Of a stretch of DNA of 4,669 nt, positions 1 to 4,669 are shown one piece after another. The notes beneath the pieces are model-generated. The model searched no databases, was not told the DNA's origin, and saw only the letters and a list, made by a program, of their open reading frames with translations. The position numbers and the translations under genes are program-made. Positions within the stretch are counted from its first letter, which is position 1, and each line of letters begins with the position of its first letter. Source of the DNA: a virus (Duplodnaviria > Heunggongvirae > Uroviricota > Caudoviricetes); the IMG/VR virus record IMGVR_UViG_2565956719_000007, one strand, 5' to 3'.

Positions 1-51
1 GCAGAAAAAGCTTATTATGCTTCCATCGGAAACGATGATCTGGCAGCCTGA
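1..51 (+). CDS. IS3-family transposase OrfB, C-terminal fragment (start lies upstream of the window)
   Basis: Frame 1 is open from the window edge and translates to AEKAYYASIGNDDLAA before TGA at 49-51, immediately upstream of the terminal inverted repeat. Confidence 0.7.
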   Translation, partial: AEKAYYASIGNDDLAA

Positions 52-68
52 GTTCACAGATAAAACAC

Positions 69-93
69 TCTCCAGGAAACCCGGGGCGGTTCA
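69..93. repeat. Terminal inverted repeat (right end) of the left IS copy
   Basis: TCTCCAGGAAACCCGGGGCGGTTCA matches the reverse complement of 4576-4600 at 23 of 25 positions (9 identical, 2 mismatches AA/TT, 14 identical). A 14-mer inverted match is not expected by chance in 4.7 kb. Confidence 0.85.
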
Positions 94-602
94 CTGTTAA
101 CACTGCCACTGTTGGGCAACTTCAGAACCACTGTCTCACCGCATTATCTCAAGGCGCAACTGAATTAAATATCCATATATCAAGTCAGGGAGGGGAAACT
201 GCTGCTGGCTTTACTGCGTATAACTTTCTTAAGTCACTCCCTGTTACCGTTAGAACTCACAACATAAGCAATGTTGAATCCATAGCTAATATCGTTTTCC
301 TGGCTGGCTCAGAACGTTTCGCAAACCCATTATCAAGATTCCTGTTACATCCTCTATTATGGTGCTTTGCCTCCCCAGCCGCCGACCATGCCAGATTGAG
401 AGAGTACGGGAAATGCCTCGATAACGATCTTGATCGCTTCGTTGAGACGTTCAATATCGACATCGGAACCCATATTAGGTGGGCATCCCTGATAGCAGAC
501 TCGACCATTTTGGATGCTAACAAGGCTCTTGAGCATGGCATAATTAATTCCATAAAAACTGCAAGGCTGGCATCCAATCAGGCAAACTGGTGGGTTGTTT
601 GA
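94..602 (+). pseudogene. ClpP-family (peptidase S14-like) serine protease homolog, 5'-truncated at the IS junction
   Basis: This frame is open from 39 to the TGA at 600-602 but has no ATG/GTG/TTG before 396, and everything left of 94 is IS sequence. By eye it aligns with E. coli ClpP: ISSQGGETAAG to INSPGGVITAG, VESIANIVFLAGSERFANPLSRFLLHP to [46 protein letters not shown] to FLSAPEAVEYGLVDSI. Candidate catalytic Ser (in VESIA) and His (in LLHP) are retained. About 20-45 N-terminal residues appear to be missing. Confidence 0.6.
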
Positions 603-627
603 TGGGTAAATCATGATTACTCCTTAT

Positions 628-652
628 AAAAAACCCACCTGACGGTGGGTTT
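628..652. terminator. Bidirectional rho-independent terminator between convergent genes
   Basis: AAAAAA-CCCACC-TGAC-GGTGGG-TTT: a 6-bp GC-rich stem with a 4-nt loop, an A-run on one side and a T-run on the other. It sits between the + strand stop at 600-602 and the minus-strand stop at 651-653. Confidence 0.6.
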
Positions 653-1100
653 AGTCAAACATAGTGTTTCTAAAGTCTCTCGCATACCCTGCTAACACTC
701 TCATTCTATTATGATTGTTAGCAGACATGTGAGCTACAGGATGAAAAAGAGCAATCAATGAATACCTGTTCTCATCAAAAAGATTTTGTGCATAAACGAG
801 AGCGGTATTGGATGTTTTATGCCACTGCAACTTTTGCGGTGTGCTGATATCTGTGCCATTTTTTATTGGCTCAAATTTATTTTCACCAATTGCTAAATGA
901 AGGTGCATAAGGCCTGCATCTTCAATATCAGGAGGTCGATGATAAGAGGTGTCTCTGCCAAAATAGCTGGGCAACGTTCCCGTAGACTTGTAGATGATAA
1001 AATCATCTACAAGTGTTTGTTTTAAATCAGGAAACTCAACAAAAACCGGGGAGAAAAAATAGTCAAAACTATCCTGATTATATTCCACGGTTACTTGCAT
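651..1100 (-). CDS. YafO-family-like toxin (putative ribosome-dependent mRNA interferase), 149 aa
   Basis: ATG at 1100 is preceded by GAGGT with 5-nt spacing, and that SD overlaps the upstream gene's TGA stop. From memory of E. coli YafO the protein shares motifs: IIYKSTGTLPSYFGRDTSY with ISYKRDGVLPDTFGRD, MHLHLA with HIHLA, LQWHKTS with LRQWSKTS, and a similar length. Family assignment is unverified. Confidence 0.55.
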   Translation of the reverse strand: MQVTVEYNQDSFDYFFSPVFVEFPDLKQTLVDDFIIYKSTGTLPSYFGRDTSYHRPPDIEDAGLMHLHLAIGENKFEPIKNGTDISTPQKLQWHKTSNTALVYAQNLFDENRYSLIALFHPVAHMSANNHNRMRVLAGYARDFRNTMFD

Positions 1101-1108
1101 GTTTTACC

Positions 1109-1675
1109 TCAGTGGAAGTTACCAGAGTGAAACACACGAGTCCCGTGCTCAGCAAGCGCACGCAAACCAGCCATATCTACGGAACTATCAAAAACAACCG
1201 GAACACATGAGCGTTGTTTAATAAGACTATTCAGGTTGGTTACGGCAGATCTGGCATCAGCAACAACGATATAGATATCTCTTGCGATCTCTTTAAAATC
1301 AGCAGAAGCTTCTTTGAATACCGATTTCATTGCCCCTTCAAGTCCTCTCAATTGATGCTCTATCAATCGAGACTTTTCTGGTTCAATGATAGACAACACA
1401 TTGTCTACATTCTCATCGGTAGCGTTTGCAAGAACACGATAAGCGTATTTCAGCATTCGAGACAATTCTTTAATCGAAGACACCGCCTCATGAAGCTCAT
1501 CATTAGCCCGTTCACTGCTGAATGAGGATTGATGGTAAGCGTGCTGAACGTTATCAGTAACAACCACCTCACAACTGAACGCAGAAGCTTGCTGTAATAG
1601 CAAACCTATTGCGACTCCAGCTTTGGCAGCGTTCAAGCTAAACATTTCATCAATCCCATTAGTCTCATTGCTCAT
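1109..1675 (-). CDS. Hypothetical 188-aa protein, first gene of the operon; candidate antitoxin or partner of the YafO-like protein, no recognisable domain
   Basis: ATG at 1675 is preceded by AAGGAGGT with 5-nt spacing, so I prefer it to the TTG at 1705 used by the ORF track. Its stop at 1109-1111 lies 8 nt from the next start. The protein is acidic and probably helical, with no HTH or nucleotide-binding motif evident by eye. Confidence 0.7.
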   Translation of the reverse strand: MSNETNGIDEMFSLNAAKAGVAIGLLLQQASAFSCEVVVTDNVQHAYHQSSFSSERANDELHEAVSSIKELSRMLKYAYRVLANATDENVDNVLSIIEPEKSRLIEHQLRGLEGAMKSVFKEASADFKEIARDIYIVVADARSAVTNLNSLIKQRSCVPVVFDSSVDMAGLRALAEHGTRVFHSGNFH

Positions 1676-1850
1676 ACAAACCTCCTTCTTATCGGAGATT
1701 ATCAATAGCTATGCATCCATTGAATACACGCTATGCGCAATAAGTTTACGTCACGTGATATCATTATGCAACCACCGTTCTATCACCGACTAACTTTACT
1801 CCCACTCCTATACATCATCTGGTATCCTGCGCAAAACTAAGGAGGTTGGT
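1676..1850. promoter_or_regulatory. Divergent intergenic control region between the minus-strand operon and the + strand membrane-protein gene
   Basis: A 175-bp AT-rich gap between divergent starts. On the minus strand a candidate sigma70 promoter is TTGCAT (1771-1766), a 17-nt spacer, then TAAACT (1748-1743). The spacer holds two overlapping 8-bp palindromes, TCACGTGA (1751-1758) and TGATATCA (1756-1763). On the + strand a possible extended -10 TGgTATCCT lies at 1820-1828, before the SD at 1839-1845. Promoter calls are weak matches. Confidence 0.4.
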
Positions 1851-2201
1851 GTGAATGCTCAGTCTGTCATCATGGTTTTCCTTGGGCTGATTGTCGCAAA
1901 ACTATATCCAGACTGGTGGAAAGGGGCATTAGCTACTGTCGCCATCTATTTGCTTTTATCCATCGTTAAGCGATCACTCGCTGAGACCGTAAATCAAGCA
2001 AAACGTTTCTCATTTAAGAGTTTAATAAACTATGTTACTGGGCTTATTTTTTGCCTTTCAATTCTGATCGCTTCGGCTTTTTTGCCCGTATCAATAGCTA
2101 ATTTTTTTGGCGCACCATATGAGGTAGGTTATCTATTCTCTGTTTCCTGTCTTGCCATTGCTCTTCTTTACCTGTGGACGAGATCAAAGAATAAAAATTA
2201 G
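1851..2201 (+). CDS. Small integral membrane protein (116 aa, about 4 predicted TM helices); possible superinfection-exclusion or immunity-type protein
   Basis: GTG start at 1851 with AAGGAGG 5 nt upstream. Four hydrophobic stretches are visible (VIMVFLGLIVAKLY, ALATVAIYLLLSIV, GLIFCLSILIASAFLPVSIANFF, YLFSVSCLAIALLYLW) and the C-terminus is basic (RSKNKN). Function is inferred from context only. Confidence 0.7.
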   Translation: MNAQSVIMVFLGLIVAKLYPDWWKGALATVAIYLLLSIVKRSLAETVNQAKRFSFKSLINYVTGLIFCLSILIASAFLPVSIANFFGAPYEVGYLFSVSCLAIALLYLWTRSKNKN

Positions 2202-2218: not shown

Positions 2219-4231
2219 TTATTGAGCTTCTTTTTGTGATGCCTGTGCGACTCTGGTGAGCGATTGTGTGACCGTACTGATCGCTCTGTCATATGCTGTG
2301 CTACCTTTTGGCGTATTTGCCAGACGTAACAAGGCATTTCGTATAACAGGGCTTTCGTATGCCTTCGCAGCTCCTCCTACGACACCAGCAGCAGGAACAA
2401 CAAACGCAGCCGTTTTTAGCATCCCCGCTAATACTGCTGCGTTTATGATGCCACCACCAACTAACAATCCATAAAGCTGCTGACCATTTAAGTTTTGAAC
2501 GTTCGCTTTTGCCGCGTGTCTTGTATCGTTGAGGTATTTAATAACGCCGTCCAGTTCCTTTCCATGTACGCCTTTAAAGAAAGTTGCTGATTGCTTCCTG
2601 TTCCGGTGTAACGCATTAATAAACTTTTCAACACTAATATTTCCAGACGGATCAGTCGCCTTATCTACAGCATTCTGAACTATGGCTGCTCGTGCGTTTT
2701 GCCTACCATTGTCATCCAGAAGCCTGTAAAGCTGAGAACGTTCTGATGGGTTTTGGCTAAAAACGAGTTTTGTTACATCCTCAGGTGTAGCCTTGCCGCT
2801 GGCTATTGCCTTTTGAACGCGCGTTCTTCCCATCATGTCATTGAATCTAGCCCATGAGCGATCAACCCTAGACATATTGGCAGCTTCTTCTGAGCCTAGT
2901 TTTTGGGATACTGCTTTTTTCATATCCGCTGTATATGCCTTGTAGACAATATCGCTGGCTTTCTGGAGCGTGTCTTTATCAACAGTCTCGTTTGAATTCA
3001 TGAACCGCTTTCGAAGGTCAGTTCTGTTTTCTCTCGCCAGACGCAGGTCATTGGGTCCGCTGGTGATATCGTCTTTAAATTGCTGCAAGACTTTTACCGC
3101 GGCTCTATCCTGAGATTTGCCCGGGCGGCTTAACACGGCAATCTGATTGTCGATAGCTTTTACCGTGTTTGAGAGATCGACAGGGGTATCCCCCATAGCG
3201 TCAATTATGCGGTTATATCGCTTTCCTGCTGCCTCAATGAATTTTTGTTGCCCTTTAGTCGCAGATTCATAAAGCTGTTTATCAGAAATGCCACCCAGAC
3301 CATCGCTAAATGTTCTGACTAAATTTTCTCGTGCTTGTTGTTGATTCAGCCGATTCTTACCGGTTCCAAAAAAAGGAACTCTTTCGCCTAATGTCTGAGC
3401 CTGACTCTGCATAAAGGTTTTATCTTTCAGCGTGTCACTGGTCATTAACGGCAGGTTTCTTTCCGACGCAAAATCGACAGCAGCCTTTGCTTCCGGTGAC
3501 ATCTCACCGCGAACAGCCCTGGAAACCGCACTAACTGTATTTTCCAGCCCCTTGCCAACACCACCAATGCCAGCAGAAATTACCGTTTGTGCAGGATCAA
3601 TATCTTCTCCGCCAGCAAGGCTGGTGCCACCCTGTAGTGCTAAATCTGTAGCAGCTGATTTCCCTATGGCACCAAGCACCGTTCCAGCCCTGCCCGCTGG
3701 TGTGAACGCTAACGCATTAGCAAGAAACGAAGTCAGGTCTTGCGGTGATAAACCTGGCTTGTTCAGGGCATAATCACCGGATGGCAGGGAAACGATAGTG
3801 TTACCCTTCTCATCCTGCCTTAATTTCGCCCCCATACTCTGAAGAATCTTTTCCTGAGACGCGTCGGAGCCGAAAAGTTGAGACCATCCAGCCTTCAGGG
3901 CATCCATGCTTAGTGAGTTCAACTCAGGGGCAGCCCCAACATTTTGCAGTCTCTCCATTTCTGGTGTCATTCGGCTTTCACCGGTAACGGCATCGCGCAT
4001 TGCAGCACCTAAAACAGCCCCTTGCTCAGCAGAGCGATCTAGTCCTTCCTTCTGCTGAGTGGCAAGCTGTGCATATCCTGATGCAAGTGAGTTGTCTGCT
4101 GGCGATTGCTGAACACCTTGTTGTGTTGGCGCTGACTGACCAGCAAAATACTCATCAATGGCGGACCCAATATCTTCCGTGCTCGTACCATCAGGAAAGG
4201 TAAATGTCTTACCATTTGCAGTTACTTTCAT
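2219..4231 (-). CDS. Large 670-aa protein, probably a phage DNA-ejection (injection) protein of P22-like podoviruses, gp16/gp20-like
   Basis: A 2 kb ORF with ATGATGA at its start overlapping the upstream gene's TGA. The second ATG (4231) is chosen because GGTGG lies 4 nt upstream of it. The protein is Ala/Gly/Gln/Ser-rich with a about 40-residue hydrophobic segment near the C-terminus (LYGLLVGGGIINAAVLAGMLKTAAFVVPAAGVVGGAAKAY). The N-terminus MKVTANGKTF..PDG.S.EDIG.AIDEYF resembles my recollection of P22-like ejection proteins. It is certainly a real gene; the product call is tentative. Confidence 0.5.
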   Translation of the reverse strand: MKVTANGKTFTFPDGTSTEDIGSAIDEYFAGQSAPTQQGVQQSPADNSLASGYAQLATQQKEGLDRSAEQGAVLGAAMRDAVTGESRMTPEMERLQNVGAAPELNSLSMDALKAGWSQLFGSDASQEKILQSMGAKLRQDEKGNTIVSLPSGDYALNKPGLSPQDLTSFLANALAFTPAGRAGTVLGAIGKSAATDLALQGGTSLAGGEDIDPAQTVISAGIGGVGKGLENTVSAVSRAVRGEMSPEAKAAVDFASERNLPLMTSDTLKDKTFMQSQAQTLGERVPFFGTGKNRLNQQQARENLVRTFSDGLGGISDKQLYESATKGQQKFIEAAGKRYNRIIDAMGDTPVDLSNTVKAIDNQIAVLSRPGKSQDRAAVKVLQQFKDDITSGPNDLRLARENRTDLRKRFMNSNETVDKDTLQKASDIVYKAYTADMKKAVSQKLGSEEAANMSRVDRSWARFNDMMGRTRVQKAIASGKATPEDVTKLVFSQNPSERSQLYRLLDDNGRQNARAAIVQNAVDKATDPSGNISVEKFINALHRNRKQSATFFKGVHGKELDGVIKYLNDTRHAAKANVQNLNGQQLYGLLVGGGIINAAVLAGMLKTAAFVVPAAGVVGGAAKAYESPVIRNALLRLANTPKGSTAYDRAISTVTQSLTRVAQASQKEAQ

Positions 4232-4575: not shown

Positions 4576-4600
4576 TGAACCGCCCCGGGAATCCTGGAGA
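4576..4600. repeat. Terminal inverted repeat (left end) of the right IS copy
   Basis: TGAACCGCCCCGGGAATCCTGGAGA is the inverted partner of 69-93 and begins with the TG dinucleotide typical of IS3-family ends. Confidence 0.85.
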
Positions 4601-4629
4601 CTAAACTTCCTGAGAAAGAGGTAAACAGG

Positions 4630-4669
4630 ATGACTAAAAATACTCGTTTTTCCCCCGAAGTCCGTCAAC
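4630..4669 (+). CDS. IS3-family transposase OrfA, N-terminal fragment (continues beyond the window)
   Basis: ATG at 4630 with a canonical SD; translation is [13 protein letters not shown]. It was missed by the ORF track because it runs off the window edge. Confidence 0.8.

Follow-up and report, generated by a model that had tools for sequence, protein, structure and literature searches.

Introduction

Phage morons, as described for HK97 and HK022, are units of promoter, gene and terminator inserted between phage genes. Type II toxin-antitoxin systems, for their part, include relBE, yefM-yoeB, higBA and phd-doc, whose promoters are autoregulated and whose antitoxins use an RHH, HTH, AbrB or Phd-type DNA-binding domain. 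YafN of E. coli K-12 is of the Phd/YefM type, and yafN-yafO is expressed from the dinB operon. In the gene order described for PF_YafO, the antitoxin comes first and the toxin second (PMC11980606). The slot between gene 16 and mnt of phage P22 holds sieA, and 85 bp upstream of sieA are enough for its expression (PMC10883804).

Here, we analysed a stretch of phage DNA of 4,669 nucleotides (the window) in which a YafO-family toxin gene and a partner gene are transcribed away from a gene in the sieA position. An earlier note on this DNA had described overlapping palindromes inside a candidate promoter of the toxin operon and had read them as an autorepressor operator. Based on comparison with related loci, positions 1743-1771 are probably a sigma-70-type minus-strand promoter of a two-gene YafO moron, in which the palindromes would be incidental and not a conserved operator.

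Results

A YafO module in an accessory slot of a P22-like prophage

From position 94 to position 4577, the window is 100% identical to a P22-like prophage of the CUS-3 type that is present in ATCC 11775 and in E. coli K1 strains such as S88 and APEC O1, while the ends of the window (1-93 and 4578-4669) match IS3-family elements with thousands of copies across E. coli genomes. Both ends are IS3-family termini in the same orientation; the left one is a 3' terminus, and the right one a 5' terminus after which the transposase gene begins, at about 4629. These termini bracket 4.48 kb of prophage DNA containing the YafO module, in a composite-transposon-like arrangement in which the Clp-like protease and gp20 genes are both cut short.

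The order of genes is a truncated ClpP-like protease gene (plus strand), the YafO toxin gene (minus), a 188-aa gene (minus), a divergent intergenic region of 175 bp, a 116-aa membrane-protein gene (plus), and the gp16 and gp20 ejection-protein genes (minus). The features of the two-gene unit and its divergent neighbour are as follows.

651-1100, minus strand: YafO-family toxin gene, 149 aa (Pfam PF13957, E = 3.4e-22; the RefSeq annotation agrees)
1109-1675, minus strand: 188-aa partner gene, presumed antitoxin; all-alpha, phrog_8416 (function unassigned), no Pfam or NCBIfam match
625-652, minus strand: intrinsic terminator at the end of the two-gene unit, immediately 3' of the yafO stop codon; 9-bp hairpin, -14.9 kcal/mol, z = -3.0, then a U run
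1851-2201, plus strand: 116-aa membrane-protein gene, an ORF in the same slot as sieA

The YafO toxin also matches NCBIfam NF007377, below the equivalog cut-off of that model. Its partner gene ends 8 nt before the toxin gene in the window, and members of the partner family (172-190 aa) are always found 8-9 nt 5' of a YafO gene (L006, L007-L013, L046-L050). The pair occurs in four independent settings, namely the P22-like slot, the tail regions of HK639 and L049, a chromosomal gntP-marC site (L047, L048) and a short metagenomic contig (L046), which supports a cognate pair. A recognised toxin family and a conserved adjacent partner that travels with the toxin are thus both present, as expected of a type II toxin-antitoxin system of the YafO type; the two are presumably toxin and antitoxin, with the partner neutralising YafO.

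No DNA-binding domain was detected in the 188-aa protein with Pfam, NCBIfam or PADLOC. An AlphaFold2 model of this protein (pLDDT 78) consists of long helices and has no strands, and a Foldseek comparison of the model with the PDB returned nothing at E <= 0.001, the best match (E = 0.047) being to generic helical bundles. The 188-aa family is probably a new YafO antitoxin family, unlike YafN of E. coli K-12, and despite the fold search an all-helical protein of this kind may present a novel DNA-binding surface.

Two further observations concern the neighbourhood of the slot. The ClpP-like gene, which resembles head-maturation proteases (window 105-602, plus strand; L001 8467-9003), lies directly 3' of an mnt-like Arc-family gene, and the immI region is an unusual site for such a gene, the head genes being far away. 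In P22, an ORF of 120-125 aa with an HExxH motif (HECAH) lies on the minus strand opposite sieA (L014 2136-2513); it is absent from the feature table of BK000583, and its start overlaps the sequence just 5' of sieA.

The probable core promoter is conserved where synonymous sites have diverged

Direct reading confirmed the two hexamers that the earlier note had placed on the minus strand, TTGCAT (1771-1766) and TAAACT (1748-1743), with a 17-nt spacer between them. The plus strand of 1743-1771 is AGTTTACGTCACGTGATATCATTATGCAA, and the minus-strand reading is TTGCAT-AATGATATCACGTGACG-TAAACT.

1766-1771, minus strand: -35 hexamer TTGCAT of the cargo promoter, read directly; TTGC invariant in the protein-homology loci, variants TTGCAT, TTGCAG and TTGCGC
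1749-1765, minus strand: spacer AATGATATCACGTGACG, 17 nt; length 17 in all haplotypes, 11 of 17 columns variable
1743-1748, minus strand: -10 hexamer TAAACT; variants TAAACT, TAGACT, TACACT and TAGAAT, with positions 1, 2, 4 and 6 invariant
1734-1738, minus strand: predicted transcription start, placed from the hexamer position, about 7 nt after the -10
1676-1733, minus strand: module-specific 5'UTR with the Shine-Dalgarno sequence AAGGAGG (1687-1681) and a conserved block, CATAGCGTGTAT; kept among YafO-type modules, absent in SEN22-type loci

Counted from the predicted start, the 5'UTR would be about 60 nt long in the window and about 27 nt in SEN22-type loci. An Rfam search of positions 1500-2000 (E <= 1) returned no RNA family.

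The hexamer pair agrees with the consensus TTGACA/TATAAT at 7 of 12 positions, and its 17-nt gap falls within the 16-18 nt accepted for sigma-70 promoters; because it has only these seven matches, it was not listed by a consensus scan. With a rough weight matrix built from sigma-70 consensus frequencies, the pair scored 9.7 bits, the best sigma-70-like site on either strand of the intergenic region, a value inside the range of best scores from shuffled 211-nt sequences (median 8.5, 95th percentile 11.8). The sequence of this one locus would therefore not establish a promoter, whereas the comparative data support one well.

The 188-aa protein has few relatives: a word search gave 6 clusters, and an exhaustive HMMER search gave 19. 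Contigs with partner homologs 79, 65, 63 and 54% identical to that of the window (L007-L013) are all P22-like prophages that have the partner gene and then the YafO gene at the same position, and the divergent neighbours across the related loci differ (115, 297, 140, 111 and 107 aa). When the intergenic regions were aligned, the five distinct YafO-type core promoters all kept TTGC--, a gap of 17 nt and TA-A-T.

Window: TTGCAT-AATGATATCACGTGACG-TAAACT
L007: TTGCAT-AATGATAGCACATGACA-TAGACT
L008-10: TTGCAG-GTTGACACCATGTATCG-TAGACT
L011-12: TTGCAG-ATTGACATCACGTCAAG-TACACT
L013: TTGCGC-GATGATATCATGTCAAG-TACACT

Three further loci (L025, L029 and L051) are near-identical to the window's version, with TAGAAT as the -10 hexamer. 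Mean pairwise divergence was then compared across the parts of the promoter.

16 nt 5' of the -35, five protein-homology loci: 0.11 per site
-35 hexamer, five protein-homology loci: 0.20 per site
-10 hexamer, five protein-homology loci: 0.13 per site
Spacer: about 0.33 per site in the five protein-homology loci; 0.29 over the tabulated haplotypes, the highest within the core promoter
Fourfold-degenerate sites of yafO, five protein-homology loci: 0.31-0.66 per site, mean about 0.47

The -35 hexamer, the -10 hexamer and the exact 17-nt spacing are conserved where synonymous sites have diverged by 31-66%, and the promoter reading is for this reason well supported. Positions 1, 2 and 6 of the -10 hexamer matter most for recognition by sigma-70, and invariance of TTGC in the -35 and of T1, A2, A4 and T6 in the -10 is the substitution pattern that would be expected of a working sigma-70 promoter. 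As the earlier note proposed, the candidate promoter lies upstream of a toxin operon, the toxin belonging to the YafO family (PF13957). The spacer evolves at about 0.7 times the synonymous rate between constrained hexamers; it is somewhat less diverged than fourfold sites and has an invariant core, T-G-A-x-A-x-C, so that weak constraint on the spacer is possible.

Only 5-6 independent spacer haplotypes were available for comparison, which is a small set. Loci from viral contigs and metagenomes were retrieved by a pattern that included the upstream element and TTGC, and for these motifs it is the protein-homology loci that give an unbiased view. A fixed-gap version of the pattern found no match and a variable-gap version did. 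In metagenomes, three relevant loci were recovered (L051, L056 and L067), the other matches being due to chance, and a scan of genome contigs with one genome per species gave only chance matches in unrelated taxa.

Unrelated cargo modules are joined to the same probable promoter

In Salmonella phage SEN22 and related contigs, the same position is occupied by a gene for a 217-aa DUF1902-domain protein followed by a HicA toxin gene. The -35, spacer and -10 of these SEN22-type loci are identical to those of L008-10, which carry a YafO module, and the homology between the two ends 2 nt after the -10 (window about 1741-1771; L002, SEN22, 3000-3045; L008 2889-2935). Since divergence is complete from that point, the boundary of cargo exchange would coincide with the predicted transcription start. 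The divergent intergenic region of SEN22 measures 141 bp, with 34 nt between the -10 and the ATG, so that a further promoter could hardly be accommodated. Given that unrelated cargo has the promoter in common, the promoter behaves as part of the slot and not as part of each cargo. An operator in the spacer that is recognised by the products of one module could not easily serve an unrelated module.

Other phages have HicA-type or Panacea-type modules in the slot, or nothing; in phages Emek and phiv205-1 it contains a Panacea-domain (DUF4065) module, with a different upstream region again. In the lambdoid phage HK639, a two-gene module with a partner 38% identical to that of the window (E = 1e-38) lies among tail genes, and its upstream region is unrelated and lacks the window's motifs. 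Comparison of the upstream regions of the distant modules in HK639, L046, L047 and L049 with the window's spacer revealed no motif in common.

An invariant element abuts the -35 hexamer on the side of the divergent gene

The earlier note had remarked that the palindromes also face the divergent membrane-protein gene. The geometry is as described; the palindromes, however, lie about 57-70 bp upstream of a block that the gene has in common with P22 sieA and outside any plausible core promoter of the plus-strand gene. The protein itself showed no homology to SieA (E = 0.29). Two features of this side of the intergenic region bear on the argument.

1820-1853, plus strand: block in common with the region upstream of P22 sieA, comprising TGGTATCCT, the Shine-Dalgarno sequence AAGGAGG and a GTG start; 97% identical to P22
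1772-1787: near-invariant element next to the -35, GGTGATAGAACGGTGG when read on the minus strand; it differs at about 0.11 per site, compared with about 0.47 for fourfold sites of yafO

The annotated putative sieA promoter of P22 ends where the 1820-1853 block begins. With regard to the start of the membrane-protein gene, RefSeq gives the ATG at 1872 (109 aa) instead of the GTG at 1851 (116 aa); the AAGGAGG-N5-GTG block, identical to that of the annotated P22 sieA GTG start, suggests that the GTG at 1851 is the real start.

Within the near-invariant element, GGTGATAGAACGGTG (1787-1773), located just 5' of the -35, is the most conserved non-coding stretch. The element (also L005, about 3000-3015, and L074-L083) persists in SI8-like phages with no cargo and no minus-strand promoter, and therefore belongs with the side of the sieA-position gene. 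The stretch contains no dyad, is not A/T-rich and shows no co-variation with Arc/Mnt operator types.

These properties raise the prospect that a regulator from the phage backbone or from the host binds GGTGATAGAACGGTG, the TGAyAnC core of the spacer, or both, and so coordinates the divergent promoters, in which case the palindromes would be at most a local variant of its site. Conservation of the element, its persistence in phages without the cargo, and its centre near -43, a typical position for an activator, are all consistent with such a regulator, as is TGATAGAA, which is found in the element and, going by the P22 annotation, also in one half of the P22 Arc operator (O_arc). Nevertheless, the element is a single half-site whose dyad partner is missing, the arc-mnt operator types differ between loci where the element is unchanged, so that it does not co-vary with the Arc/Mnt proteins, and no candidate regulator was found; its conservation could instead stem from a role as a recombination linker or as part of the region upstream of the plus-strand gene. 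We consider this explanation unlikely.

The element matches the arc-mnt repeat of the window's own prophage, GATAGCAAAGTG, at 9 of 12 positions. Identity with an Arc/Mnt operator was considered and rejected, given that arc-mnt operator types vary among loci, the element is invariant and the second half-site is missing. Outside the window, in the arc-mnt intergenic region (L001 8125-8195), two inverted copies of GATAGCAAAGTG lie 31 nt apart and flank the divergent arc and mnt promoters; these are presumably the phage's own Arc/Mnt-type operators, and they differ from those of P22, SEN22, Emek and L007.

The spacer palindromes do not survive comparison with orthologs

The two overlapping palindromes are present as the earlier note described them, with TGA in common and both within 1749-1765.

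1751-1758: 8-nt palindrome TCACGTGA; intact only in the window lineage and the near-identical L025, L029 and L051
1756-1763: 8-nt palindrome TGATATCA; intact in the window lineage and also in L013

TCACGTGA is broken in L007, L008-10, L011-12, L013 and all SEN22-type loci, and TGATATCA is broken in L007 (TGATAGCA), in L008 and SEN22 (TGACACCA) and in L011 (TGACATCA). Four of five independent haplotypes thus lack the former and three lack the latter, and the two occur together intact only in the near-identical lineage of the window. In L007, the closest ortholog (partner 79% identical), two of the three changes in the spacer break both palindromes, with no symmetric compensation.

We also asked how often such palindromes arise by chance. 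The window contains 21 perfect 8-nt palindromes, compared with 18.2 expected by chance in a random sequence and 18.4 +/- 4.4 obtained by simulation with a first-order Markov model, and a second overlapping pair is found at 2993/2997. An overlapping pair arose in 33% of the windows and 2.7% of the 175-bp intergenic regions that were simulated, indicating that the palindromes are mildly unusual for their spot, but not once the search is allowed for. More generally, dyads with arms of 4-5 nt are common by chance in any 25-nt stretch.

The reading put forward in the earlier note, recast as a lineage-specific operator, is one of self-repression of the promoter through binding of the 188-aa protein, alone or complexed with YafO, to TCACGTGA/TGATATCA. 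The arrangement is classical, with an inverted repeat that truly lies within the spacer and overlaps the core promoter, and the low frequency of such pairs in regions of this size speaks for it, as does the unchanged spacer of L025, L029 and L051, whose -10 and 5'UTR differ from those of the window at 4 positions. Other haplotypes have different dyads at this spot, for example TTGAC-N5-GTCAA in L011, and in L049, where the module is a distant one with a partner of about 19-26% identity, a perfect palindrome of 13 nt, TTGATATTATCAA, lies directly 3' of the best predicted promoter (2440-2455, about 58-46 nt 5' of the partner gene); no other independent context that we examined has a promoter-proximal dyad. 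Moreover, operators can turn over fast, and loss from orthologs is no proof of inactivity in the window lineage. Set against this are the loss of both dyads from a 79%-identical ortholog, the occurrence of an identical spacer in front of a YafO module and an unrelated HicA module, a spacer less constrained than its flanking hexamers, the unrelated upstream region of HK639 and the 188-aa protein, in which no DNA-binding domain or fold was detected. A dyad kept in orthologous modules or co-varying with the antitoxin, and an antitoxin with an RHH, HTH, AbrB/SpoVT or Phd/YefM domain, both of which would be expected of a type II operator, were not found. We therefore regard the autorepressor as unlikely; the operator reading is not supported by these data, the existence of the two short palindromes being the positive evidence that remains for it, and the palindromes appear incidental to the spacer of this lineage.

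Resemblance of the spacer and its flank to CRP, FNR, Fur and lambda operators was assessed by eye against consensus sequences and set aside, as only partial half-sites were seen and none was conserved in the other haplotypes.

Finally, it is improbable that 1743-1771 is not the promoter of the operon but a mosaic junction or the upstream region of the plus-strand gene, with transcription starting elsewhere, for example at 1726-1696: the consensus match is weak, the matrix score is within the shuffled range, the adjoining element travels with the plus-strand gene and weak sites do lie nearer the start codon (TTCAAT-17-TAATCT and TATTCA-17-GATAAT), but these score 6.1-6.9 bits and are not conserved (TAATCT is CAATCT in three of five haplotypes), they are impossible within the 34 nt available in SEN22-type loci, and the invariance of T1, A2 and T6 in the -10 and of TTG in the -35 is what selection on a promoter predicts.

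Discussion

Taken together, these results are best explained by a sigma-70-type promoter that drives a two-gene YafO moron. The promoter TTGCAT-17-TAAACT would transcribe a 5'UTR of about 60 nt, the 188-aa gene and the YafO gene, and transcription would stop at the terminator at 625-652. A promoter and terminator of its own around cargo genes in a phage-variable slot were found, as in morons, and the unit occupies the accessory slot that a P22-like prophage of the CUS-3 type has between the sieA-position gene and the mnt side of immI. Most likely, the promoter is not regulated at the spacer by the module's own products, and module-specific control, if any, would act in the module-specific 5'UTR or after transcription. 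The sequence features, their conservation and the sharing of the promoter by unrelated modules are direct observations, as is the lack of a recognisable DNA-binding fold; that the promoter is active, where transcription starts and that no protein binds are what we infer.

The feature is very probably an unannotated example of an ordinary sigma-70 moron promoter, and its importance in that respect is small. What it illustrates is that short palindromes in a promoter spacer say little about autoregulation unless orthologs share them. Beyond this, the P22-like slot appears to lend a common promoter to interchangeable toxin-antitoxin cargo, among it a YafO toxin with an uncharacterised helical partner, which bears on how toxin or defence modules of prophages may be expressed without their usual self-regulation.

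It is tempting to go further and to regard the promoter and the invariant 15-nt element together as a cargo platform of P22-like phages, at which YafO- and HicA-type modules would be swapped at the transcription start, with a factor coupling the platform to the divergent sieA-position gene and a partner belonging to a non-DNA-binding antitoxin family. We offer this combined view tentatively and consider it doubtful as a whole. If true, toxin-antitoxin or defence modules would be driven by a promoter that the phage owns, and a type II module would operate without transcriptional autoregulation. In literature searches on sieA promoters, on YafO partners and on toxin modules of CUS-3, we came across no paper on the minus-strand promoter, on a common promoter slot with cargo swapped at the start, or on the partner family of YafO.

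Comparison with known systems

Several described systems resemble parts of this locus. P22 P_sieA is comparable in that the plus-strand gene of the window occupies the sieA position and has 34 bp (97% identical) in common with P22, including the Shine-Dalgarno sequence and the GTG. However, the protein of the window is not a SieA homolog, the putative promoter of P22 lies in sequence absent from the window, and P22 has no counterpart of the minus-strand promoter. P_ant/O_arc of P22 likewise has a dyad inside a 17-nt spacer and belongs to the same immI neighbourhood, and the prophage of the window encodes Arc-family proteins nearby; in this case, the arc-mnt repeat of that prophage, GATAGCAAAGTG, does not match the palindromes, and the operator types vary independently of the cargo promoter.

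With yafN-yafO of E. coli K-12, the module shares the YafO family (PF13957) and a gene order of antitoxin then toxin, but it differs in having an all-helical 188-aa partner of phrog_8416 and a prophage promoter. The autoregulated promoters of relBE, yefM-yoeB, higBA and phd-doc are similar in the position of the partner gene before the toxin gene and in the palindromic sequence over the core promoter. In contrast to those systems, the palindromes of the window are 8 nt long and unconserved, the spacer is held in common with an unrelated module, and the partner lacks a detectable DNA-binding domain.

With the phage morons, the locus has in common a sigma-70-like promoter (1771-1743), two genes and a terminator (625-652) on the strand opposite the adjacent virion genes and in a variable slot. 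It departs from them in that unrelated cargo modules here have the promoter in common, with the exchange boundary 2 nt after the -10.
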